From positions 294,709 to 358,708 of the forward strand of contig CAYQJB010000001.1 in assembly GCA_964417855.1 (NCBI GenBank): a DNA stretch of 64,000 nucleotides, in the 5' to 3' direction. The translations under genes were made by a program, and so were the position numbers. Positions within the stretch are counted from its first letter, which is position 1, and each line of letters opens with the position of its first letter. The notes beneath the pieces were generated by a model. That model was given only the letters and a program-made list of their open reading frames with translations. It had not been told where the DNA came from and ran no database searches. Source of the stretch: an uncultured Candidatus Saccharibacteria bacterium. Lineage in GTDB: Bacteria; Patescibacteriota; Minisyncoccia; Phycocordibacterales; CAIZLB01. Below, piece after piece: positions 314 through 22,566 of this stretch.

Positions 314-3300
314 ATGAATAAAAAATATAGTGTTATGGTTAAATTAGTTTTTCTAATTTTATTGTGTTTAGTAATTATCAGAATTGTCATGGGCGGAAAT
401 AGGGTAGAGGCCTCGGCTGAGGTGGAAGTATTAGCTTTAAAGCCTGTTAAAATAATTGATGGAGCAGTGCCAATAACTGGTAATGAGTTTTGGTCAGCGG
501 ATTATGATTATAAAATTTCATCTCAACTTACAATCACATCAAGTTCATCACTTAGTATAGAAAATGGGGCTAGAATATTAATAATTGATAATGGAGGTTT
601 TGTTATAAACAATGGTGCGGTTTTGAATATTGGTTCATCTGTCAGTGACTTTATCCTTCCTCAACCGCAGTCATCATCTCAAGCAAGACCTATAGATTTT
701 CTTGCAGGGGTAAATAATTCTTCAGGAGGAACAATACTTCTTGCTCTTGCTGACGGAGTTTTTGCCTCATCTGTATATAAATCCTCAAATATATTAAATA
801 CTAAAATAGAAATATCTGGTTCAGGCTATAATCATGTTTTTGCATTAAATGGTGGAGCTATCTTGAATGCTAGAAAAGTAGATATTAGTGGTGTGCAAAA
901 CACTGGTGCTCAAAATGGTGTTTATAATGACATTAAAAGAACTATTTTTGGCTCATATACGGGTTCTAAGCTTAATTTATTTGAGGTAAATGTTAATAAT
1001 ATTAGAGCCTTTAATTATGGTGTTTTTTATGCAGGTGGGGGAAGTAGAACAGTAATATATAAATCAAACATTAATGGCTTTGTAGGGCAGACTTTTGCTG
1101 GCTTATACAACGGAGTAACAATGAATGTTTTTGATACAAAGATAAACAATTCAGTGGTAGACAAAGTATTTAATGTTTCATCGTTGAGTACATTAAATTT
1201 TCAAAAGTCTGCGGTCTCAGCAACTCAAATAAATATATTATCATCGAGCTCTGGAACATGTATTACAGGCTTTGGAGGTACTACTGTAAATGTGTCAGAC
1301 TCAGATATCGGACCATGCTTTATGGGTTTTAGTTTCTATGGAACGGGTAACTTTAAAGTAAATAAAAATAATCTTACCGGTAATGGAGATGCAGTAATAA
1401 ATTTTAGTACAGGCGTTGATGTTAGTAATAATTGGTGGGGAAGTGCTACAGGTCCAAAGCCCGCTGATTTATCAAGCTTGGATCCTAATGGATACTCCAC
1501 AGCAGATTACATAAGGGTAATCGCAAATCAAAATGCAATACATGATTTCAAAGGTACTGTAACGTCAACACCTTTTGCTTCCGCGCCATTCAGAGATTCT
1601 TTATGTTGTTCAAGCGTTCTCTTTATCCCCGGAATTCAAGCCAGTAGATTATATAAAAAAGGATTACTGGGAATGGAAAATCAATTATGGGAACCAAATA
1701 GAAATAAGGACGTTGAATCTCTGTTTTTAAACTCCGTTGGAAAGTCTGTTAATTCCAATATTTATACAATGGATATAATTACAAAGACAAACTTTCTTGG
1801 ACCTTTGGGGTCTTTAGATATATATCAAAGTGTGATTGATGTGCTATCTAAAGAAAAAACTGATGGAAATATATCTGATTTTCAAACACTTGCATATGAT
1901 TGGAGGTTCCTACCTTCAAATATTCTCTCTGGTGGAATTAAAACGGATTCATATACTCTAATGTTGAAAGATAAGATTAAGGAAATGGCAAAAAAGTCTA
2001 CATCAGGGAAGATAATAATTGTTGCCCATAGCTATGGCGGGCTTTTGGCAAAGGCTTTAGTTGAGGAATTAGAAAAGGAAGGATTAGACGATAAAATTGA
2101 GTCTGTGGTATTGGTTGCTGTGCCTGAATATGGTACCCCTCAATCAATACCTGCAATATTTTATGGCGACAATGAAGACCTCTTGGGTGGGCTTATACTA
2201 AGTAAATCAACTGCGGTGTCACTTGCTAAGAACATGCCCTCAGCACACCTTCTATTGCCATCCCCGGCCTATTTTACTCATGCAGACGGTATATATGATC
2301 AACAAAATATAATTAATTTAGATACCTGGACAGCCAATCATTTTAAACTTGGATTAACAAAATACGACTCATTTCCTAGGGTGGCAGATTTTCTTAAAAA
2401 TATGAAAATTGCATCTACTGATGGCATGAATGCTGCTATTTTTGATACGGCAGGGTCGGAACATGATTTAATTGATAATTATTCCTCAGGCTTGTCTTCA
2501 AAGACTTATTCTATTGTTGGTGTTGGAATTCCAACTCTCTCCGGAATGACCTATGTTAAACCAAAGTGTAGAGGTTTTTTCTTTTGTGCACCAATCGGAA
2601 ATAACCTTCCTGATTTTACAAGAAAATATTCTCTAATGGGTGATGGTGTTGTGATTGCACATAATTTTGCATCAAGAACGGGATCTGTTTTTGCGGTGGA
2701 TATTGGCAAAGAAAATGAAGTCAAAAAAACTGCTCCACTATTTTTTAGGGAGGATGCGATATCTCATAAGGATATTTTTAGGTCATCAGGTGTTAAGGAT
2801 ATTCTGCATGCTATTTTAAGTAGATCAAAAAAGGAATCTGAGATGGTGAATTCTTTTGGGCAATTGCAAAATCCGTACGTATCGTATGTTTCTGGGTTAT
2901 TATCTAAGCCAGGTCCGATACTTGGAAGTTATGGTAATTCATCTATACTTTCTGGAATTTCAAAAATCGCAGAAGATGCAACTGACGCTGATTTCACTCA
3001 AAGATTTAAGAACAGCAAGATTTTGATTGTAGAAGCATATGGTCCGCTGGTTCTGAAAACTAATTTTAAAAATATTAGCGATTTGCAAAGTTTACCATTT
3101 GAACAACTAGGTCTACAGAATAGAATTATAAATTCAACAAAATATTCTGATAACAATAAGACTGGGCTTGTATCGGTTGTTTCCTGTGTCTATTCTAATT
3201 GTGAAGGTACTGCGGATAGTTTCTTTAAAGCAAATGTTTATGGACAGGGAGGGGGAGTGGGAACTGCACAAATCGTTCTTAAGATTGATAATAAGGAAAT

Positions 3301-8044: not shown

Positions 8045-8893
8045 AAAAATCGCTCAACTTCAAGAAACGACGAACTCAGCATTCCTGAAATTTGAAAATT
8101 AAATTCTGTACCAGTTTTAGTGGATAACATTCATGTAGTTTAGGCCATGTGGCCGATGCTACCTGATACGTATTCTGTTTGGTCTTTTCAATACTGGAGA
8201 CAGAGCTCCATGAAGTACTACTTTAAGGGTAATGCTGCATGGGGTCGTTATCGTACTTACTCTCAAGGAGTATGATAACAAAACAGGTAACAAACAAAAG
8301 TGATTGTGGTCTTTTTATTTCCTAATAGGAAATATAAGGGCGTATGGTGGATGCCTTGACACAACATAGCGATGAAGGACGCAGCATGGCGGCGATACGC
8401 TTCGGGGAGGTGCCTAGCAACCTTTGATCCGGAGATTTCCGAATGGGGAAACCCAAGAGACTTGATCTCTTATCTTACTTTTAAGTAAGGTGCGCACCCA
8501 GTGAAGTAAAACATTCTAGTAACTGGAGGAAAAGAAAACAAGTACGTAAGTACACAATTTCGTAAATAGCGGCGAGCGAAAACGAAATAGCCCAAACCAG
8601 ACTTCCACATTGGGGATGACATTTTATCGGTTCTTTAATTTATTAGGGAACTATCATTATGCTGTCTCCTATGTGGCAGTCTGGGGTTGTAAGATAATAA
8701 TAGGATATTTATATCCAAAGAGTTACAAAATTTTTTGTTAACAGAACGCGTTGGGAAGCGCGACCAAAGAGGGTGACAGTCCCGTATGTGAAAATAAAAA
8801 ATCTCTTCTTTATTACTCTTGAGTACCCCGAGACACGAGTGGCTCGGGGGAATCCAGCAGAACTAACTGCTAAGGCTAAATATATGTTGTGAT

Positions 8894-8930
<37 letters not shown>

Positions 8931-10356
8931 CAGTCCGATGAGGACAGTGAAATAGACCTGAAACCATATGCCTACAAGGAGTCAGAGCGGACGTATTTAT
9001 ACGATCCGTCATGGCGTGCCTATTGAAGAATGAGCCAACGAGTTAATATGTATTGCTCGGCTAAATCCGCGAGGATGGAGCCATAGGGAAACCGAGTATT
9101 AATAGTGCGTCCGTATTACATATTAGACCCGAAGCCAATGCGAGCTATCCCTGGTCAGGCTGAACTTTGTCGAAAGACAAAGGGAGGGCCGAACCCGTAT
9201 GTCGTTCAACTCATTGGGATGAACTGGGGATAGAAGTGAAAAGCTAATCGAGCTTGGTAATAGCTGGTTCTCTCCGAAATAGCTTTTGGGTTAGCGTCGT
9301 GTGTTCCTCTTGGGGGTAGAGCACTGGAAGGACTCGACAGGGAGAAATCTCGCGAGTCCTATCAAACTCCGAATACCAAGAACTAAAGCACGGCAGTTAG
9401 TCCGTGGGGGCTAAGCTCCACAGGACAAAAGGGAAACAGCCCTAGATCCATATTTAAGGTCCCTAAATCTATACTAAGTGCACTTAAGGTGGTGGAATTT
9501 CTGAGACAATGAGGAGGTTTGCTTAGAAGCAGCAATCCTTGAAAGATAGCGTAATAGCTCACTCATCGAGAGATTCTGCGCCGCAGATTCGCGGGGCTAA
9601 AGTATAGTACCGAAACTTGGGGTGTCCTACTGCTTCGGCGGTAGGGCGCGGTAGGAGAGTGTTCTTGTCTGCGATGAAGGGGAAGAGGTGACTCACCCTG
9701 GAGCGTCAAGAAGTAAGAATGTTGGCACAAGTAACCACAATCGGAGTGAAAAACTCCGACGCCGAAAGAACAAGGTTTCCTTCGCAATGATTGTCATCGA
9801 AGGGTTAGTCGGGCCTAAGGGGATGGTGAGAACCGAACCCGACGGACACATGGTTAATATTCCATGACTTCTGTATACAGTGATGAAATGACGGAGTGTA
9901 GTATGAACAGCGCATAATCGGATTTGTGTCCATGCTTTAAGGAAGTTCTCTAGGTAAGTCCGGAGAGCTGATTTTAATATCAATTCCAAATAGAGTGGAG
10001 ACGTTAGGGGTTCGCCTCTAAATAATTGTTCAAAGCACGCTTCCAAGAAAATTTTCTAAACTTATGTATGCGGAAACCGTACCGAAAACCGACACAGGTG
10101 TTCAGGTCGAGTAGACCAAGGCGAACGGGTGAGAGGTCTTCAAGGAACTCGGCAAAAAAGCAGCCGTAACTTCGGAATAAGGCTCGCCCTCCCTAAAAAG
10201 AGGGTTGCAACAAAAGTATCCCTGGCAACTGTTTATCAAAAACACAGCTCCCTGCGAACTCGTAAGAGTATGTATAGGGGGTGACACCTGACCGATGCCA
10301 GAAGGTTAAACGTTGAGGGTACTATCGCAAGGTAGTGCTGATTGATGTAAGCCCTG

Positions 10357-10391
<35 letters not shown>

Positions 10392-10752
10392 TCAGCATTT
10401 GTTTTTATTAATGAATGCTGAAGAACTAGGACTGTTCATAGATGTGTTGATAAATAATGAAGAACCAAAGAATGCAAAGGAAAATTAGAGCTGCCTGTTT
10501 CAGTAAAATGAAGCGTTCAGACTGACTATATGCTGGTAAATCTGTGTGTGAAAAACACTGTAGTATCTAACACTACTAAGTTATAAAATTCGAAAGAAAA
10601 TTATTTCAAGTAAAAATGTGATTAGTGCAGACGATCAGCAGGAAAGACTAAAAAGTAATTTTTAGAATCCTCAGAAACCAAACGTCAGACTAAATAGTAA
10701 TATTTAGAAGATAGAGTTCGATCTTTATAGCGATATAAAGTTAACATAAATT
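10392..10752 (+). other. group I-like intron (ORF-less) inserted in 23S between GGTCCTAAGGT and AGCGAAATTCC (E. coli ~1917 region)
   Basis: flanking exon sequence is contiguous in E. coli 23S; insert carries group I core-like elements (CAGCAGGAAAG, GTCAGACTAAATAG, AAGATAGAGTTCG); boundaries +/-1 nt. Confidence 0.6.
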
Positions 10753-11081
10753 AGCGAAATTCCTTGTCAGGTAAGTTCTGACGCGCACGAATGGTGTAAT
10801 GACTGGGGAACTGTCTCGAAGACCCGCCCGGTGAAAATGCAATGGAGGTGAAGATGCCTCCTACCTGCAGCTAGACGAAAAGACCCCAGAAGCTTCACTG
10901 CAACTTGATATTGATTGTATGTTTTTACTGCGTAGAATAGATGGGAGAGGTTGAGATCCTGATTTCGGTTAGGGTGGACTCGTCAGTGAAATACCATTCT
11001 TTAAAAATATACATTCTAACCTCGACGGAAAAAACGTCGAGAGACAGTATCTGGTGGGCAGTTTTAGTGGGGCGCTATCCT

Positions 11082-11445
11082 CGAGGGTTTAAATTAATTT
11101 TTGAATCCTCGAACTATGGCGCCTCCAGAGATTTGTCATCTCGAAACAAATAAAAAAGGGGGACTGTAATAAGTAATTATTATTAGAAAAGTTAGTTATA
11201 TGCTGGAAAATCTGTGTCTTCAATGACTTAGAATGCAAGCTACCTATTAATTTAGGTAACAATGTTTGCATGCAGACTATCAGCAGGAAAGATTTCTATC
11301 ACAAAAAGTAAAATTGATGTAATAGAGAAATCCTCAGAGACTATACGCTAACCGTCCAGTAAAATGGATGATGATATAGTCCGATCTTTATAGCGATATA
11401 AAGCTTACTGAAAAGTAAGGCTTAGTAAAATAAGTAACATAAATG
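11082..11445 (+). other. second group I-like intron (ORF-less) in 23S just 3' of the P-loop (GGGGCGCTATCCT|...|CCTAAAAAGTAACGGAGG)
   Basis: 5' exon ends in U and insert ends in G (omega-G-like); R-like TCAGAGACTATACG and S-like GATATAGTCCG elements; 3' half homologous to first intron (shared GATCTTTATAGCGATATAAAG and ...AACATAAAT end). Confidence 0.6.
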
Positions 11446-11831
11446 CCTAAAAAGTAACGGAGGAGTCTATTAAGGTCAGCTAGGCGCGAATGGAAACCGT
11501 GCCGATAGTGCAATGGCATAAGCTGGCTTGACTGTGAGGCGTAAGTGCCAAACAGACGCGAAAGCGGAGCATAGTGAACCGAGGGTCCGCATTAGATGCG
11601 GCCAAAGATTATCTGACAAAAGCTACTCTGGGGATAACAGGCTGGTTGTGCCTAAGCGTCCATAGCGACGGCACAGTTCGGCACCTCGATGTCGGCTCGA
11701 CTTATCCTGGGGGTGAAGAAGCTCCCAAGGGTATGGCTGTTCGCCATTTAAAAAGTCACGCGAGCTGGGTTCAGACCGTCGTAAGACAGGTTGGTCTCCT
11801 ATCTGCTGCAGGCGTTGATACTTGAGAGGAA

Positions 11832-11862
<31 letters not shown>

Positions 11863-12178
11863 TGATCTCTGGTGTACCAGTTGTCTTGCCAAAGGCATCG
11901 CTGGGTAGCTATATCGGGAATGGATAAGCTCTGAAAGCATCTAAGAGCGAAGCCAACCTCAAGATAAGGTATCGTTTGAGATCCGTGAGAGATTATCACG
12001 TTGATAGGCACTAAGTATAAGCATAGTAATATGTTCAGCTGAGGTGTACTAATAAATCGATTCTTATTAGGAAATATGAAGATTCACGATCACTTTTGTT
12101 TGTGACCTAAATTACAAAATAATAATTCTGCAAGTTTTATTATAGAACCATGAAAAGACCTTTAAATTGACCGTTTCG

Positions 12179-12290
12179 TTCTGGTGACTCGTCGGAGGGG
12201 CCACACCTGATCTCATTCCGAACTCAGAAGTTAAGACCTCCAGAGGCGATGATACTCACTTGTTGGGGAAAGTAGCTCGTCGCCAGAACA
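12179..12290 (+). rRNA. rrf: 5S ribosomal RNA
   Basis: TTCTGGTGAC...CCACACCTGATCTCATTCCGAACTCAGAAGTTAAG...GTCGCCAGAACA with pairing termini. Confidence 0.85.
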
Positions 12291-13330: not shown

Positions 13331-14473
13331 ATGATTGTGATAGATGAAATATTATCCTCAAAGAAAAAATGGCGCCCAGATCTCTATATTTTAGGCGCTG
13401 TATTGCCAATATTAGGAGCGGGGCTTATAACAATGAAATCTTTTGTTGGCAGCAGTGATTATTTTGGTAGACAATTAGTTTGGATAATTGTTGCGTTAAT
13501 GGCTTTTTTTGTATCAAGTAAAATAGATTTTAGAGTATTAAAGCGAACTTCAGTAATTGTTGTTTTATACGGCTTGTCTACATTAATGCTTGTTGCGCTG
13601 TTTGTTTTTGGATCTATTTCAAACGGAGCAAAAAGTTGGATAAATGTTGGGCTTTTTTCTATTCAACCATCTGATCCCGCAAAATTAATTCTAATATTGC
13701 TACTAGCTAAGTATTTTTCTAGACGTCATATGGAAATTGCAAATATACGCCATATAATTGTTTCTGGGGCCTATACTTTTATTGTTTTCATTTTGGTGGC
13801 ACTGCATCCAGACTTAGGTTCTGCTATTACAATTTTTGCAATTTGGTTTGGAATGGTTCTATTTTCTGGTATTTCAAAGAAACACCTCGCTATAGTTTTT
13901 TTAAGTGGTTCATTGGTATTTTTTGGGGCTTGGAATCTGGTTTTCAAGGAGTATCAAAAAAATAGAATCATTAACTTCATCACTCCCTCGGCTGATGTTA
14001 GGGGTAGTGGATATAATGCAAGACAAGCGATGATAACCGTTGGTTCTGGTGAATTATTTGGGCGTGGAATTGGCTATGGTACTCAATCAAGACTACAGTT
14101 CCTTCCTGAATATCAAACAGACTTTGTTTTTGCAGCTTTTGCAGAAGAATGGGGTTTTGTAGGTGTAATAATTCTAATGAGTTTATTTGCATTAATTATT
14201 GCCAGAATTTTATATATAGCTTCAAAAGGGGAGACAAACTTTGAGATATTATTTGGGGTTGGGCTCGCTATATTCTTTATGTCGCACTTAATAATTAATA
14301 TAGGAATGAACATTGGCCTCATGCCGGTAACTGGTATTCCAGTTCCATTTATGAGTTATGGTGGGTCTCACTTGGTTACAGAATTTGTTGGTTTAGGTCT
14401 TTTGATGTCCATGAGGAAGTATTCTAGGCCTATACATAAGGACAGAACCAATAATGAGTTTCTGGGATACTAG
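13331..14473 (+). CDS. SEDS-family peptidoglycan glycosyltransferase (FtsW/RodA)
   Basis: 380 aa polytopic; GSGYNARQAMITVGSGELFGRGIGYGTQ...LPEYQTDFVFAAFAEEWGF typical of FtsW/RodA. Confidence 0.9.
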   Translation: MIVIDEILSSKKKWRPDLYILGAVLPILGAGLITMKSFVGSSDYFGRQLVWIIVALMAFFVSSKIDFRVLKRTSVIVVLYGLSTLMLVALFVFGSISNGAKSWINVGLFSIQPSDPAKLILILLLAKYFSRRHMEIANIRHIIVSGAYTFIVFILVALHPDLGSAITIFAIWFGMVLFSGISKKHLAIVFLSGSLVFFGAWNLVFKEYQKNRIINFITPSADVRGSGYNARQAMITVGSGELFGRGIGYGTQSRLQFLPEYQTDFVFAAFAEEWGFVGVIILMSLFALIIARILYIASKGETNFEILFGVGLAIFFMSHLIINIGMNIGLMPVTGIPVPFMSYGGSHLVTEFVGLGLLMSMRKYSRPIHKDRTNNEFLGY

Positions 14474-14612: not shown

Positions 14613-16112
14613 ATGAAAAAAGTCAGAATTAGCGCAATCTTACTGCTTATCTTCGGATTCGCAGTACTAGGATTTGATTATTATTCACAAGTTCCGGGCC
14701 AAGGATTTATTTCTAATTTTCCTTTTAAACTTGGCTTAGATCTTAGCGGTGGATCACACTTGGTTTATCAAGCAGACCTTCAAAAATCTGGCTCCGTTGG
14801 GGGTGTTAAGGATGTTGATGGAGCAATGGAAAGTCTAAGGGGGGTTATTGAATCAAGAATTAACGCCTTTGGAGTTTCAGAGCCTATCATTCAAACAGAA
14901 AAATCTACAATTAACGGGCAAGAAGTTCGTAAATTAGTTGTAGAGCTTCCTGGTGTAACAGACCTGAAGAGTGCTATTGATACAATAGGAAAGACTCCAG
15001 TTCTTGAATTTAAGATTCAAAAAGAGGGGGTGGGAGAAGCTGATCTTACAAAAGCTACAGAGCTACAAAAAGCCCTTAACGAGCTATCTACATCATCTAG
15101 CGCTTCAGCTGTAGCTTCAGCAAATGCTGTTGATGCAACAAGCTCATTAATTTCACTATTAACATCAACAAGTACAAATAACCAAACAGCTAAAGCAACA
15201 TCAACTGTTGCTGCTACAGTAGACTATTCAAAGCTATATGATGACGTTGGACTAACAGGTCAATACCTTAAATCAGCGCAAGTACAATTTGATACAAACA
15301 CAAGACAACCTCTTGTTGCAATTTCTTTTGATGAAACAGGAAAGGCAAAGTTTGCAGAGGTTACTGGAAAAAACATCGGAAAGATTTTAGCTATTTTCCT
15401 AGACGGAAAGCCAATTTCTACTCCAGTAATTAGAGATCAAATCAAGGATGGAAGCGCTGTGATTTCAGGAAACTTTACTCCAGAGGAGGCAAAGTCACTT
15501 GCTAGAGACCTAAGATATGGTGCTCTACCTGTTCCTATAACACTTATTGGAACTCAATCAATTGGTGCTTCTCTTGGTGAAAACGCACTTAAGGCTAGTG
15601 TTGATGCAGGACTTTGGGGATTCCTTATTATCGCAATATTCCTATTGCTATGGTATAGACTTCCTGGTCTTGTAGCTATTGTTTCATTATCAATGTATAC
15701 AATATTCATGCTAGCAATATTTAAGATGATTCCGGTTGTTCTAACTTCAGCTGGACTTGCTGCCTTTATTCTATCTATTGGTATGGCGGTTGATGGAAAT
15801 ATTCTAATCTTTGAAAGAATGAGAGAAGAACTTGCAAAAGGCCACTCTCTTGAAGATGGTATAAGAGAAGGTTTTGCGCGCGCATGGCTTTCAATTAGAG
15901 ATTCAAACTTATCAAGTATTATTACTGCTGTTATTCTTTATTTCTTTGCAACATCTGCATTAATTAAAGGTTTTGCATTAGTATTCTTAATTGGTGTGTT
16001 GGTTTCAATGTTTACAGCTATTACAATTTCAAGAACTTTCCTTCTTGCACTTGGTGTTAAGAAACACAAGGGAATTGTAAAGTTTTTATTCAGTAATGGC
16101 CTAAGACGCTAA
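14613..16112 (+). CDS. secD: protein translocase subunit SecD (with Ser/Thr/Ala-rich low-complexity insertion)
   Basis: LDLSGGSHLVYQAD, C-terminal RND-like TM bundle; insertion SSSASAVASANAVDATSS... Confidence 0.95.
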   Translation: MKKVRISAILLLIFGFAVLGFDYYSQVPGQGFISNFPFKLGLDLSGGSHLVYQADLQKSGSVGGVKDVDGAMESLRGVIESRINAFGVSEPIIQTEKSTINGQEVRKLVVELPGVTDLKSAIDTIGKTPVLEFKIQKEGVGEADLTKATELQKALNELSTSSSASAVASANAVDATSSLISLLTSTSTNNQTAKATSTVAATVDYSKLYDDVGLTGQYLKSAQVQFDTNTRQPLVAISFDETGKAKFAEVTGKNIGKILAIFLDGKPISTPVIRDQIKDGSAVISGNFTPEEAKSLARDLRYGALPVPITLIGTQSIGASLGENALKASVDAGLWGFLIIAIFLLLWYRLPGLVAIVSLSMYTIFMLAIFKMIPVVLTSAGLAAFILSIGMAVDGNILIFERMREELAKGHSLEDGIREGFARAWLSIRDSNLSSIITAVILYFFATSALIKGFALVFLIGVLVSMFTAITISRTFLLALGVKKHKGIVKFLFSNGLRR

Positions 16113-16135: not shown

Positions 16136-17116
16136 ATGTTTGTAGTTAAATACAGAAAAATTTTTTACACGTTATCAATACTCCTAGTATTATTCTCTAT
16201 ATTTTCAATTTCAAAATATGGACTAAATTACGGAATTGATTTCAAAGGTGGTTCAATTATTGAAGTTGAATACAAGGGCGCAAAACCATCTCATGATGAG
16301 ATTACATCAATTGTTAAAAATGCTGGTGTCACAAGTGAAATAGTTGTAAGACCAACGGGGGATATGGGTTATATTATTAGAACTGCCGATTTAGCATCTA
16401 GTACAATTGATTCAGTTACAGCGAGTCTAAAGACTGGAGTTGCTGGAACATCAACAGCCACAACTTCTGCTGTTGCCGCTTTTTCAGATTCAAATAACTC
16501 TGGTGTAGCAACATCAACAGCCATTAAAGGAGAAATAAAAAGAATGGATACAGTAGGACCGATTCTTGGTCAAGAGCTTCAATCAAAGGCTTGGACTTCA
16601 ATTCTTTTTGTTATACTTGCGATTGTTTTGTTCATCACATTTGCATTTAGACATGTTTCAAAGCCTGTCTCATCATGGAAATATGGGCTGTCAGCCGTTA
16701 TTGCACTTGCTCATGACGTATTGGTTCCAACTGGAATCTACGTGTTCCTAGGAAGGAATGGAGGCTTTGAAATCGACGCACTCTTTGTCACTGCTATTCT
16801 TGTTATACTTGGATTCTCAGTTCACGATACAATTGTTGTGTTTGATAGAACAAGAGAGAACCTAAAGCTAGATGATCATCATAAGGATGCATTTGATAAA
16901 ACTGTTGGAAAGAGTATTAGTCAAACATTCACTAGATCTATAAACACTTCATTGGTTACAGTGCTAGCGTTGGTTGCTCTATATATCTTTGGGGCTGAGG
17001 CAACTAGAAACTTCTCATTGATATTGATTATTGGTATTGTTTTGGGAACATACTCATCAGTATTTCTAGGATCTCCACTTTTGGTTACTTTTTGGAAGGG
17101 ACAAAAGAATAACTAG
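16136..17116 (+). CDS. secF: protein translocase subunit SecF
   Basis: GIDFKGGSIIEVEY and C-terminal TM region typical of SecF. Confidence 0.95.
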   Translation: MFVVKYRKIFYTLSILLVLFSIFSISKYGLNYGIDFKGGSIIEVEYKGAKPSHDEITSIVKNAGVTSEIVVRPTGDMGYIIRTADLASSTIDSVTASLKTGVAGTSTATTSAVAAFSDSNNSGVATSTAIKGEIKRMDTVGPILGQELQSKAWTSILFVILAIVLFITFAFRHVSKPVSSWKYGLSAVIALAHDVLVPTGIYVFLGRNGGFEIDALFVTAILVILGFSVHDTIVVFDRTRENLKLDDHHKDAFDKTVGKSISQTFTRSINTSLVTVLALVALYIFGAEATRNFSLILIIGIVLGTYSSVFLGSPLLVTFWKGQKNN

Positions 17117-18179: not shown

Positions 18180-18367
18180 TACGACCACGCCACTGATGAT
18201 TTTCACAAATCATTTGATTAAATCGCAGGGGGCCGTCCTAGGAATCTCCCAGGAATATTGAGTTAGGTAAAACTAATAAAATATTTCAGGCATTTCTAAA
18301 GACATCTTTGACAACTAAATGACAACCAACAAACGTCCTTTTTTTTGTTCTGTTTGAGTTTAATTTT

Positions 18368-19840
<1,473 letters not shown>

Positions 19841-20189: not shown

Positions 20190-20263
20190 GCGTGTGTAGC
20201 TCAGCTGGTTAGAGCACTTCACTGATAATGAAGAGGCCGCAGGTTCGAGTCCTGCCACACGCA
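20190..20263 (+). tRNA. tRNA-Ile (anticodon GAT), CCA not encoded
   Basis: acceptor GCGTGTG/CACACGC, D-arm AGCTCAGCTGGTTAGAGC, anticodon loop CTGATAA, T-arm GGTTCGAGTCC. Confidence 0.9.
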
Positions 20264-20302
20264 CAAAGTAAGTCTCAAGTTTGAATCTATAAGTTATAAA
20301 AT

Positions 20303-20359: not shown

Positions 20360-21925
20360 ATGTATATGAAAAGCAAAACAGAGTTAAAAGTCAAAGTATC
20401 TACTAATCCTAAGGTAACAGAAAGTAATAAAAATTTGGGATTCTTTATTAAACAACTTCGAGAGGATAGAAATCTAACTCAAACAGATTTTGCTAAGCTT
20501 TTGAAAACATCACAAAGTGCGGTAGCTAGGATTGAGAATGGGGGACAGAACATGACAACAGAAGAATTGAATAGAATAAGTATTGCTCTTGGAAGAAAAA
20601 TTATGACTATTTCAGATTCTATTGATGTAGAAATTAATGGGGGAAGAAAACTTTCTGGAACTATCGCAACGAATACATCTAAAAATGGGGCGCTTGGTCT
20701 TATTTGTGCATCACTTTTAAATAAAGGAAAAACTCGTCTGCATGGAATACCTCGTATTGAAGAGGTTCAAAGAATTATAGAATTAATGGAAAGTATTGGT
20801 ATTTCAATAAAATGGATTGAAAAAAATACTTTGGAAATTATTGTTCCAAAAAAGTTAAAAACGGAGAATATGGATAAGGTCGCAGCAGGAAGAATTAGAT
20901 CCGGCTTGATGATGATTGGCCCAATGATCCATCTAGAAAGTATATTTAAAATACCTCACTCAGGAGGTTGTAAAATGGGTCAAAGGACAATCTCTGCTCA
21001 TAGATATGGTCTAGAAGATTTGGGTGTAAAAATTGATACAAAAGAGGATCATTATCTAATTCAATCAAAAAAACTAGCGCCCGCTCATATTATAATGTCA
21101 GAGTCTTCCGATACTGCGGCCGAGAATTTATTAATGGCGGCAGCCCTAATAAAAGGGAAGACTACAATTCAGTTTGCACCACCAAACTATCAGGTTCAGG
21201 AAGTATGTTTCTTTCTGGAAACCTTGGGTGTGAAAATTGAGGGCGTTGGTTCAACCACGTTAATCGTTCATGGAATTGATGAAATTAATATGGATGTTGA
21301 TTATTATAATAGTGAAGATCCAACAGAATCTATGATGTTCATTACAGCAGGTATTGTAACTGGATCTACTCTGACTATAACGAGATGTCCAATTGATTTT
21401 CTAGCCCTGGAAATGTTTAAGTTAAAAAAGATGGGATTGAAGTATAAGCAGACATCTGTTTATTATGCTGTGAATGGTAGAACAAAATTAGTTGATATTA
21501 CTATTTACCCATCAAAACTAGTTGCTCCACTTGATAAAATTTCAGCCCAACCATATCCTGGAATTAATACTGATAACCTGCCATTCTTTGTGCCAATTGC
21601 TGTGTTGGCTAAGGGGACAACTTTGATTCATGATTGGATGTGGGAGAATAGAGCAATTTATTTTACAGAGTTAAATAGGCTTGGGGCCAATATCAACCTG
21701 GCGGATCCTCACAGAGTTTTTATTCAAGGGCCCACAGAATTGAAGGCTGCACAAATTGTTTGCCCTTTAGCACTACGCCCTGCAATGATTATTATGGTTG
21801 CCATGCTTGGAGCAAAAGGAAAATCTATTCTTAGAAACATTTACCCAATAAGCAGGGGGTATGAGGATATTGCTGAACGATTGAATGGAATAGGGGCGGA
21901 CATTAAGGTGATAAAGGAGATATAG
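20360..21925 (+). CDS. murA: XRE-family helix-turn-helix domain fused to UDP-N-acetylglucosamine 1-carboxyvinyltransferase (MurA)
   Basis: residues ~25-80 are a Cro/C1-type HTH (LTQTDFAKLLKTSQSAVARIENG); remainder matches MurA incl. TSKNGALGLI N-terminus and active-site loop HSGGCKMGQRTISAH (catalytic Cys). Confidence 0.85.
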   Translation: MYMKSKTELKVKVSTNPKVTESNKNLGFFIKQLREDRNLTQTDFAKLLKTSQSAVARIENGGQNMTTEELNRISIALGRKIMTISDSIDVEINGGRKLSGTIATNTSKNGALGLICASLLNKGKTRLHGIPRIEEVQRIIELMESIGISIKWIEKNTLEIIVPKKLKTENMDKVAAGRIRSGLMMIGPMIHLESIFKIPHSGGCKMGQRTISAHRYGLEDLGVKIDTKEDHYLIQSKKLAPAHIIMSESSDTAAENLLMAAALIKGKTTIQFAPPNYQVQEVCFFLETLGVKIEGVGSTTLIVHGIDEINMDVDYYNSEDPTESMMFITAGIVTGSTLTITRCPIDFLALEMFKLKKMGLKYKQTSVYYAVNGRTKLVDITIYPSKLVAPLDKISAQPYPGINTDNLPFFVPIAVLAKGTTLIHDWMWENRAIYFTELNRLGANINLADPHRVFIQGPTELKAAQIVCPLALRPAMIIMVAMLGAKGKSILRNIYPISRGYEDIAERLNGIGADIKVIKEI

Positions 21926-21991
21926 TTTTTTAGATATATACAACTTAAGTAAGTGGTTTAGCGAGAGGTTTGATACAATTATTTTACATAC

Positions 21992-22020
21992 TTGCAAAAT
22001 ACATGCATTTTGCATATAAT
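21992..22020 (+). promoter_or_regulatory. consensus promoter TTGCAA-17-TATAAT with embedded palindromic operator TGCAAAAT-n6-ATTTTGCA upstream of dinJ-yafQ
   Basis: hexamers and 8-bp inverted repeat read directly. Confidence 0.55.
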
Positions 22021-22026
22021 ATATGT

Positions 22027-22302
22027 ATGACTACAAACGTACAAATAAGAGTAGACACAAAGTTAAAGAATGAGGCAGAAAAGACTTTGAATAAACTGGG
22101 TCTGGATTTACCTACGGCTTTTAGAATTTTCCTAAATAAAATAAACATTACTGGGGGAATACCTTTTCCTGTAAATAATGATAGTTATTTCAATTATACA
22201 AAAGAACAGGAGGATGAGATACTGGATGCCTATAAAAATGGTAAAAGATCAAAGGAGTTTAAAAATGCCAAGGAATTAATTAAGCATCTAAGGTCTCAAT
22301 AA
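22027..22302 (+). CDS. dinJ: type II antitoxin, DinJ/RelB family
   Basis: VQIRVDTKLKNEAEKTLNKLGLDLPTAFRIFLNKI resembles DinJ N-terminal ribbon-helix-helix; ORF track starts earlier (21970), internal M at 22027 preferred. Confidence 0.75.
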   Translation: MTTNVQIRVDTKLKNEAEKTLNKLGLDLPTAFRIFLNKINITGGIPFPVNNDSYFNYTKEQEDEILDAYKNGKRSKEFKNAKELIKHLRSQ

Positions 22303-22305
22303 AAA

Positions 22306-22566
22306 ATGAAGATAGTTACTACAGATAAGTATGATAAAAAATATAAAAAACTAAGTAATAATCTAAAAGATAAGATAGATAGAGCACTGGAGAAATTTGC
22401 AAAAGATCCTTTTGACCCATCTCTACTAAACCATGGTCTACAAGGAGGACTTAATGGTTTTAACTCTATTAAGGCAGGTTTTGATTTAAGAATTATTCTT
22501 AAGGAAGAGAATGGTTATATATTGGTTTTACTGATTGATTTAGGAAAACATGATCATGTTTATTAG
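22306..22566 (+). CDS. yafQ: type II toxin, YafQ/RelE family mRNA interferase
   Basis: 86 aa; HGLQGGLNGFNSIKAGFDLRIIL...DLGKHDHVY resembles YafQ (HPLQGSWKGYRDAHVEPDWILIY...); 3-nt gap after antitoxin. Confidence 0.75.
   Translation: MKIVTTDKYDKKYKKLSNNLKDKIDRALEKFAKDPFDPSLLNHGLQGGLNGFNSIKAGFDLRIILKEENGYILVLLIDLGKHDHVY

Follow-up and report, generated by a model that had tools for sequence, protein, structure and literature searches.

A 23S rRNA group I intron with an A:U pair in its nucleoside pocket and a terminal uridine in a bacterium of the candidate phyla radiation

The DNA analysed here is a stretch of 64,000 nucleotides (nt) from an uncultured bacterium of the candidate phyla radiation (CPR), referred to below as the window (contig CAYQJB010000001.1 of GenBank assembly GCA_964417855.1, positions 294,709 to 358,708), and it carries a 23S rRNA gene interrupted by two group I introns without open reading frames (ORFs). 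One of them, intron 1, lies at position 1931 in Escherichia coli numbering (site L1931) and has lost the two hallmarks by which such introns bind guanosine, in that the G:C pair of the pocket has become A:U and the 3'-terminal guanosine has become uridine, a combination that is invariant in a clade of eight distinct L1931 introns. We infer from comparison of sequences, at a probability of about one half, that intron 1 is a functional group I ribozyme with a re-specified pocket in which the terminal U docks on an A:U pair. The presence of two ORF-less group I introns in a CPR 23S gene, which is how an earlier sequence-only reading of the window had put the finding, is ordinary; intron 2 adds nothing new, and the terminal U of intron 1 is the most informative feature. 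Below, labels with four digits (L1931) denote insertion sites and labels with three digits (L128) denote retrieved sequences.

Insertion sites and exact boundaries

A search of the window with Rfam models placed a large-subunit rRNA of 3753 nt at 8321-12073 (RF02541, 2228.8 bits, full model), the sole 23S gene seen within the window. The other matches were 5S rRNA (12180-12288), 16S rRNA (18361-19840) and one tRNA, and the sole group I intron above threshold in this search lay at 11132-11403. Numbering was taken from a MAFFT alignment to the E. coli 23S (L001), in which the gene has two large insertions.

8321..12073 (+): 23S rRNA gene with two introns, from RF02541 and the E. coli alignment
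10392..10752 (+): intron 1, 361 nt, a group I intron without an ORF at L1931, member of the A:U-pocket/terminal-U clade
11082..11445 (+): intron 2, 364 nt, a canonical group I intron without an ORF at L2262

The sequence-only reading had described insertions of these two lengths in a 23S span of about 3.75 kb, and both the Rfam span and the alignment bear this out, as the sequence does for the flanks that it quoted (intron 1, GGTCCTAAGGT...AGCGAAATTCC; intron 2, GGGGCGCTATCCT...CCTAAAAAGTAACGGAGG). Its placement of the first insertion near E. coli 1917 has to be corrected to L1931, because the alignment numbering agrees with known landmarks (T at 1911, 1915 and 1917; G at 2251-2253). Intron 1 follows E. 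coli U1931 and intron 2 follows U2262. Neither insert contains an ORF of more than 70 aa or one resembling a homing endonuclease, as had been said.

The ends of both introns can be read from a relative (L128) that has neither, with 23S exons 97-100 per cent identical to those of the window and a RodA protein 80 per cent identical. Its uninterrupted sites are CCTAAGGT/AGCG at L1931 and CTATCCT/CCTAAAAAG at L2262, and its continuous sequence over the two sites (CCTAAGGTAGCGAAATTCC and CTATCCTCCTAAAAAG) equals the joined exons of the window exactly. Since the intron-less relative has the joined exons, both inserts must leave the pre-23S rRNA to the nucleotide, and exon ligation would yield CCUAAGGU-AGCGAAAUUCC at intron 1 and CUAUCCU-CCUAAAAAG at intron 2.

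For intron 1 the alignment permits a 1-nt T/T shift, 10391-10751 being equally possible, and the intron ends in U in either register, with no register giving G; the earlier reading had likewise noted a final U here and adherence of insert 2 to the U...G rule. A U.G wobble at the 5' splice site and the P10 pairing (both described below) fix the ends at 10391/10392 and 10752/10753, so that the terminal nucleotide is U10752. Two other ends were considered and rejected. Taking G10754 as a terminal G would remove A1932-G1933 from the rRNA, and a terminal A at A10753, combined with 5' cleavage after U10392, would yield A1932U; both contradict the intron-less relative, the wobble and P10.

An altered ligand layer in an otherwise conserved pocket

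No features of group I introns are considered more invariant than the G:C pair of the pocket and the terminal G. In the Tetrahymena ribozyme, cryo-electron microscopy shows G264:C311 in a base triple with the bound guanosine and three further pocket layers, formed by A263 with 262-312, A261 with A265-U310 and A306 with C266-G309 (PMC10020454), and the G:C pair has been described as universally conserved among group I introns (PMC3511172). In the Rfam alignment of intron 1, the conserved G of the model (..AGACUAAA..) stands opposite A10676 and the conserved C (..UAGUC..) opposite U10718. Along the 5' strand of P7 the Tetrahymena equivalents are A10673 for A261, G10674 for 262, A10675 for the bulged A263, A10676 for G264 (changed), A10677 for A265 and C10678 for C266; along the 3' strand they are G10716 for G309, U10717 for U310, U10718 for C311 (changed) and C10719 for 312. 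The three further layers are kept, as G10674:C10719 with the bulged A10675, A10673 with A10677:U10717, and A10713 with C10678:G10716. The ligand layer, by comparison, is altered at all three of its positions, with A10676:U10718 in place of G:C and U10752 in place of the terminal G, so that neither the G:C pocket nor the 3'-terminal guanosine of a group I intron is present.

A genome collection was scanned with the pattern ATCAGCAGGAAAN{18,48}TCCTCAGARAC, which allows A or G at the pocket position, and at least 120 loci from many phyla were found, nearly all of them 23S introns, at L1917, L1923, L1931, L1951, L2262, L2500 and L2604 (sites were assigned by explicit flank searches, an automatic assignment by shortest flank being noisy and not relied on). 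Among the matches listed, the pocket position was G in 124 of 125, and the sole A (L072) was a chance match outside rRNA. Six apparent 'G:T' pockets proved to be matches inside P8 that came from the coarse pattern used for the 3' partner in P7. A metagenome scan for the A/U variant, with the 3' end left unconstrained (AATCCTCAGAAACN{25,55}AGTTCGANC), returned 14 loci, four of them chance matches; all ten real matches lie at L1931 and end in UU directly before AGCG. A full-text search of the literature, incomplete in coverage so that an earlier description is possible, found neither a natural A:U guanosine-site pair nor a terminal U.

The clade comprises eight distinct L1931 introns, namely that of the window, L142, L130, L134/L147, L135/L138/L141/L143, L137, L136 and L140, all from metagenomic assemblies and, where the hosts can be placed, from CPR-like bacteria whose exons differ (e.g. 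AGCGCAAUUCCUAG and AGCGAAAUACC). The A:U pocket pair and the final UU occur in 8/8; the 3-5 nt before the UU vary (AUAAA, ACAAA, AAAAA, GUGG). Members of the clade carry further changes in P7, at the equivalents of U267C and U307G.

Helices of intron 1 and their covariation

In a local search intron 1 matched the group I covariance model RF00028 with 31.8 bits (E = 1.9e-6; model positions 1-253, full model covered), and it matches intron 2, which scored 70.2 bits, helix for helix. The check that the sequence-only reading had called for thus came out positive for both inserts, and their group I identity rests on the covariance model together with homology: given the RF00028 E-values and homologues at the same two sites in many genomes, the match is far beyond chance. 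The elements of intron 1 are as follows.

10378..10391 (+): 5' exon segment recognised by intron 1
10392..10421 (+): hp1, UCAGCAUU...AAUGCUGA, a hairpin from intron nucleotide +1
10427..10436 (+): intron strand of P1x, UAGGACUGUU, the partner of exon 10378-10387
10490..10496 (+): internal guide, made up of GCU for P10 and then GCCU for P1
10497-10514 and 10520-10526 (+): P2 and the 5' strand of P3
10531-10536 with 10635-10640, and 10541-10631 (+): P4, and P5 with its extension
10641-10670 (+): P6 and P6a, with P6a loop GUAA
10671..10679 (+): J6/7 and the 5' strand of P7, UCAGAAACC
10684-10690 and 10691-10706 (+): 3' strand of P3 and the P8 hairpin
10713..10719 (+): 3' strand of P7, AGAGUUC, invariant in the A:U/UU clade
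10723..10752 (+): P9 hairpin (10723-10740, GCGA loop) and tail UUAACAUAAAUU, ending in U10752

At the 5' splice site, exon AGGU (10388-10391) pairs with the guide GCCU (10493-10496) to form P1, with the wobble U10391.G10493 at the splice site, and exon AACGGUCCUA (10378-10387) pairs with the intron strand UAGGACUGUU to form P1x. P10 joins the guide GCU to the 3' exon AGC (10753-10755). The guide has the same layout as that of canonical L1931 introns (GCUGCCUUAG). P1 and P1x cross in the secondary structure and therefore form either a pseudoknot mimicking one long stacked P1 or two alternative states. A simpler model, in which hp1 and the exon-complementary stretch make up the entire P1, was set aside: it leaves the splice site unpaired, and the true guide GCU/GCCU lies about 100 nt into the intron.

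Throughout the clade the elements run, 5' to 3', as hp1, a linker AG(A/G)(A/G)C, the P1x strand (pairing with exon -16 to -5), an AU-rich spacer, the guide GCU + GCCU, P2, P3, P4, P5 with its extension, P6/P6a, P7, P3', P8, P7', P9 with its GCGA loop and a tail UAAC...UU, and the helices P1, P1x, P10, P2, P3, P4, P5, P6, P6a, P7, P8 and P9 are kept in all eight members. Pairs were counted on concatenated helix strands of fixed length, with long-range strands set at fixed offsets from invariant anchors and each hairpin stem represented by the outer pairs of the hairpin that RNAfold gave between anchors. Standard pairs fill 98.2 per cent of the 568 cells and 36 of 71 pairs show compensatory changes, figures that the choice of hairpin stems by folding biases towards pairing; no shuffle (0/500) matched any of the pair measures, and partners slid by 1-3 columns were paired in 33-41 per cent of cells. 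Covariation is found in P1, P1x, P2, P3, P5, P6a, P8 and P9, with compensatory pairs reaching 3/6 in P3 and 6/6 in P8. Intron 1 thus has the P3-P9 helices, the P3/P7 pseudoknot and the covariation of a group I core, its hairpin stems being those that RNAfold selected.

The splice-site helices P1, P1x and P10 were not chosen by folding. P1 changes from AGGU/GCCU to AAGU/GCUU in L136 and L140 with the U.G wobble present in 8/8, P10 is kept as AGC/GCU, and P1x follows exon substitutions in L134, L136, L137 and L140, with 96.9 per cent of its cells paired and 6 of its 12 pairs compensatory. A hairpin of unrelated sequence stands at hp1 in every member (8/8), 3 of the 4 counted pairs being compensatory.

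Intact LAGLIDADG_1 ORFs lie in P6a of L130 (174 aa), L136 and L140; in the window copy, which like L142 has no ORF, the same place holds only the GUAA loop. The possibility that intron 1 is a decayed copy is ruled out by the clade-wide covariation and the intact endonuclease genes of its relatives, and relative to the clade it has no extra helix defects.

Several side observations concern these and neighbouring introns. The unusual 5' layout, with a hairpin at +1, a strand pairing with 8-12 nt of upstream exon and a guide 75-100 nt into the intron, is common to CPR introns at two sites (introns 1 and 2 of the window, and those at L2262 in L134 and L135); the L2262 intron of L095 has the P1x strand and guide and lacks a clear hp1. 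The LAGLIDADG ORFs of L130 (7205-7729), L136 and L140 read through the P6-P7 core (...ESSETKRQ...), and read in this way both the G-to-A change of the pocket (GAG to GAA) and the adjacent U to C (ACU to ACC) are synonymous. The P6a loop of L134/L147 holds a GC-rich tRNA-like segment (GGGGTGTGGCGCAGAC...GGTTCAAATCCTCCCGCCCCG) that was negative in ARAGORN, and that of L135 holds a 57-aa Cys-rich ORF with no Pfam match. On L136, a CPR-like contig, a complete tRNA-Ile(GAU) with complementary flanking arms lies inside a 23S insertion (2526-2604, minus strand, the same strand as its 23S).

A 202-nt L1931 insert in the more remotely related L132 (6953-7154) was tried as a G:C outgroup and not used, having no group I match and no P4-P6. 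It shares the hp1/linker/P1x layout, has the guide GCUACCU and ends in G, and elsewhere in that 23S there is another insert, of 573 nt, at the position corresponding to window 11779/11780.

Intron 2 at L2262

Intron 2 matched the full-length RF00028 model at 11132-11403, with 70.2 bits against a gathering score of 50 (E = 8.7e-16 for the whole window).

11071..11163 (+): 5' architecture of intron 2, read from sequence
11334..11445 (+): catalytic core and 3' end of intron 2

Its P1x pairs exon GGCGCUAU (11071-11078) with UAUGGCGCC (11115-11123), hp1 occupies 11082-11111, and the guide AGGGGGA (11157-11163) consists of a P10 strand AGG (11157-11159), which pairs with 3' exon CCU (11446-11448), and a P1 strand GGGA, which pairs with exon UCCU (11078-11081) through the wobble U11081.G11160. 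The P7 5' strand UCAGAGACUA contains G11337, the bulged A11338 and G11339, the equivalent of G264, which is paired with C11381, the C311 equivalent, in the 3' strand AUAGUCC. P3' (11347-11352), P8 (11354-11369), P9 (11386-11403), P9.1 (11404-11419) and P9.2 (11421-11434) complete the structure up to the terminal G11445. With its P1 U.G wobble, P10, G:C pocket beside a bulged nucleotide and terminal G, intron 2 is, to judge from its sequence, a standard guanosine-dependent self-splicing group I ribozyme. In step 1 the wobble would mark the 5' splice site while exogenous G binds G11339:C11381, and in step 2 the terminal G11445 would occupy that pocket in its turn, the exons being ligated with the 3' exon aligned by P10.

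Eight further genomes among those retrieved, some CPR and some not, have L2262 introns with a terminal G, and the AGGGGGA guide recurs in the L2262 intron of L095. The relatives L128, L130 and L154 lack an L2262 intron.

Kinship of the two introns

The sequence-only reading had called the two introns paralogous, which holds at the level of the family; each is nearer to introns at the same site elsewhere. Over concatenated core segments, identity between introns 1 and 2 is 0.81. Six clade members were set against intron 1: five lie at 0.86-0.99, and L136, which diverges most, at 0.80. For intron 2 and the L2262 intron of L095 the value is 0.90. Recent duplication within the genome is ruled out by this nearness to same-site introns, and the two are best read as one intron family and not as recent duplicates. 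Of three core motifs that had been assigned to both inserts, CAGCAGGAAAG is in both; TCAGAGACTATACG and GATATAGTCCG occur only in insert 2, their counterparts in insert 1 being TCAGAAACCAAACG and GATAGAGTTCG. The shared 3' portion was correctly noted, as GATCTTTATAGCGATATAAAG is identical in both inserts and is followed by AACATAAAT. This identity of 21 nt covers the J7/9-P9 region (10720-10740 and 11383-11403), where other members of the A:U/UU clade carry CTGCATAGCGATATGCAG, and might be due either to gene conversion between the pair or to AT drift in parallel.

The sites 1931 and 2262 and the group I cores contradict a classification of the inserts as intervening sequences (IVSs) of the RNase III type; neither insert is a plain hairpin that replaces the tip of helix 9, 25 or 45 and lacks a ribozyme core.

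Host and relatives

The RodA protein encoded just downstream of the 23S gene is identical on 21 contigs, including GCA_037127815.1 (L122), whose 23S is 100 per cent identical to that of the window. The host is a CPR bacterium, because the taxon-named RodA homologues are labelled Paceibacterota, Pacebacteria, Parcubacteria or Patescibacteria group; rRNA introns are common in CPR according to the survey passages drawn on here (PMC11270868).

Conserved gene order allowed the 23S genes of relatives to be located. One relative (L130) has an L1917 intron and an orthologue of intron 1 with the 174-aa LAGLIDADG ORF; two others (L150, L151) have L1917 introns with an ORF and L2262 introns, and no intron at L1931. 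In L153, 99.4 per cent identical to the window, both introns are present and all 21 differences fall in exons, with none in 725 intron nt. Four of six independent contigs (L122, L124, L126 and L127, from NCBI, ENA and JGI) are identical to the window, introns included, over the covered 23S (621-3753 nt), and the other two (L123, L125) differ in exons only. This distribution of presence and absence is what would be expected of mobile introns and agrees with the survey of CPR rRNA genes (PMC11270868). Neither window intron encodes the homing endonuclease of a mobile LAGLIDADG intron, and both are considered ORF-less derivatives because the L130 orthologue carries its LAGLIDADG_1 ORF in P6a.

Other features of the locus were noted in passing. 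A 122-nt insertion at 8610-8731, in 23S domain I after E. coli 285, may be an expansion or an IVS-like element; it is common to L128 and has another length in L132. The rRNA genes are unlinked and in an odd order, with 23S-5S followed by ORF251, rodA (13331-14473), secD (14613-16112), secF (16136-17116), ORF240 and then 16S (18361-19840) and tRNA-Ile(GAU) (20190-20264), an order also found in L128 and L130. At 20360-21925 a fusion links a helix-turn-helix (Cro/C1-type) domain to an enzyme of the EPSP-synthase family (MurA/AroA-like), and a RelB/YafQ-like toxin-antitoxin pair lies at about 21970-22566.

A proposed mechanism and its alternatives

The single-pocket, two-step mechanism of group I introns was established by mutating the very G:C pair that is replaced here. 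Intron 1, which would be an ORF-less derivative of a LAGLIDADG-carrying mobile intron, may place U10752 on the Hoogsteen edge of A10676, such that a U*A-U major-groove triple replaces G*G-C, with U N3-H bonded to A N7 and A N6-H to U O4 in a donor/acceptor pattern like that of 2-aminopurine. The docked U10752 would define the 3' splice site for exon ligation, and P1x (10-12 bp) would compensate for a short P1 of 4 bp by holding the 5' exon after step 1. Because one pocket serves both steps, step 1 is expected to prefer a nucleoside other than G, uridine being the best by hydrogen-bond pattern. The comparison of sequences establishes the homology of the inserts, their boundaries, the invariance of A:U with UU across the clade and the covariation of the other helices; that the RNA splices, that U occupies the pocket and which nucleophile attacks first are predictions of the model, which as a whole is put at even odds. 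It is possible, although we advance it only tentatively, that the L1931 clade as a whole has switched its specificity from guanosine to uridine, forming the U*A-U triple and carrying out step 1 with uridine, UTP or another non-G nucleoside.

Several observations weigh against docking of U on the A:U pair. In Tetrahymena, the work of Michel in 1989 and of Been and Perrotta in 1991 reportedly found that the G264A:C311U ribozyme prefers 2-aminopurine or adenosine and that a terminal A rescues it; since such A:U mutants are rescued by terminal A, experimental precedent predicts A and not U. A pyrimidine is smaller than a purine, and docking of U would need other adjustments. At L1931 the terminal nucleotide and the identity of the pocket are not strictly coupled, because among the matches listed 12 of 36 canonical introns, with a G:C pocket, end in A (L003, L011, L020, L028, L031, L045, L047, L060, L089, L110, L111 and L118; one is from a Coxiella endosymbiont). 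One further end is U (T in L040, which has a degenerate P7) and one is C (L106). The co-occurrence of A:U and terminal U is not statistical covariation, since the clade is probably the product of one evolutionary event. The 31.8 bits of intron 1 fall below the RF00028 gathering score of 50, and the pair counts include the hairpin stems favoured by folding.

Mutating the pocket pair in Tetrahymena reportedly lowers the use of guanosine strongly, and this counts against the alternative that intron 1 splices by ordinary guanosine initiation with a relaxed end, its 3' site being chosen mainly by P10 and P9.0 and its A:U pair being neutral. We consider that account doubtful, although the A, U and C ends found with G:C pockets at L1931 speak for it and the conserved P10 AGC/GCU is consistent with choice of the 3' site by P10. 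In the same direction, a Coxiella 23S intron without terminal G is titled as self-splicing (Raghavan 2007), and both Coxiella 23S introns are reported to splice (PMC4990558). However, the pocket G:C has been described as universally conserved (PMC3511172) and is represented by G in 124/124 other introns among the matches listed, and a double change at the pair that contacts the ligand, fixed alongside an invariant UU end in eight diverged sequences, is hard to take for a neutral accident.

It is unlikely that intron 1 is catalytically dead, whether retained in the 23S rRNA or cut out by host RNases in the manner of an IVS to leave a fragmented 23S. The loss of the G:C pocket, of the terminal G and of the LAGLIDADG ORF kept by relatives, together with the score below the Rfam threshold, could be read in this way, and an unspliced L1931 intron is on record in Simkania (Everett 1999, title). 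Against this, elements that serve only splicing (P1 with its U.G wobble, P10 and P1x) are conserved and covary with host exons, compensatory change maintains every core helix, the same pocket and end occur in members whose homing-endonuclease genes are intact, and the window copy has neither extra helix defects nor strain polymorphism. A search for spliced rRNA that relied on a spurious ORF of 83 aa within the 3' exon yielded metagenome contigs only and no evidence at the RNA level.

Still less probable is compensation of the altered pocket by a protein, either a LAGLIDADG maturase acting in trans or a host factor. LAGLIDADG proteins are encoded by L130, L136 and L140, and maturase-like activity is on record for the LAGLIDADG protein from a 23S intron of Thermotoga (PMC3984707), but intron 1 and L142 have no ORF, and maturases stabilise folding and are not known to replace nucleoside recognition; protein assistance is in any case compatible with docking of U and does not compete with it. 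As the window comes from a metagenome-assembled genome, errors of assembly or sequencing might be suspected, yet they are excluded for practical purposes by the four of six independent contigs that are identical, introns included, by the restriction of differences in L123, L125 and L153 to exons, and by the same A:U/UU state on 10 unrelated metagenome contigs.

Comparison with known systems

Group I introns in CPR rRNA, introns at these insertion sites and ORF-less derivatives of LAGLIDADG introns are already known (PMC11270868, in the passages drawn on; PMC1995217). In those passages of the CPR survey (Tsurumaki et al. 2024, PMC11270868), insertions are reported in 82 per cent of 23S genes, 45 per cent of them group I by Rfam, with 1917, 1931, 1952, 2593, 2604 and 2657 as frequent sites, and ORF-less and LAGLIDADG versions at one site are near-identical outside the ORF, as is the case for the window and L130. 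The same passages of PMC11270868 are silent on the G-binding pair and on the terminal nucleotide and do not name 2262. Automated annotation can miss or misplace introns such as intron 1, because they score under the Rfam gathering threshold and break the rule that group I introns end in G.

LAGLIDADG introns at L1931 have been described in Thermotoga, Synechococcus, Simkania, green-algal organelles and Acanthamoeba (Haugen et al. 2007, PMC1995217), and the clade resembles them in its site, its GCUGCCU-type guide and its single-motif LAGLIDADG ORFs that extend from a peripheral loop into the core. In the canonical L1931 introns sampled here the pocket is G:C and the last nucleotide G or A, whereas the clade has A:U and UU, and it differs further in a 5' insertion of about 100 nt (hp1, P1x) that separates the guide from the splice site.

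The Coxiella burnetii 23S introns known as Cbu.L1917 and Cbu.L1951, going by the title under which Raghavan and colleagues reportedly described them in 2007, include one without the canonical terminal G. The window is like Coxiella in having two group I introns in one bacterial 23S, one of them without terminal G, and unlike it in their sites (1931 and 2262 as opposed to 1917 and 1951); the Coxiella variant of Raghavan and colleagues reportedly has a terminal A and a normal pocket. The L1931 intron of Simkania negevensis is likewise said, by the title of the 1999 work of Everett and colleagues, to be unspliced. It occupies the same site in a bacterial 23S and shows that an L1931 insert is tolerable in ribosomes; the window clade keeps all splice-site pairings under selection.

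The clade makes it possible to test whether a group I ribozyme can use a nucleoside other than guanosine and, if it does, would offer a second ligand specificity for engineering, for example in orthogonal ribozymes for RNA circularisation. A close parallel is the engineered Tetrahymena G264A:C311U ribozyme, in which the same change from G:C to A:U was made and a change of the terminal nucleotide was reportedly also needed for exon ligation. The Tetrahymena mutants were made in the laboratory and reportedly need a terminal A, whereas the clade is natural and conserved and has a terminal U; a natural, conserved and still mobile A:U/terminal-U clade would be nature's version of the pocket-mutation experiment.

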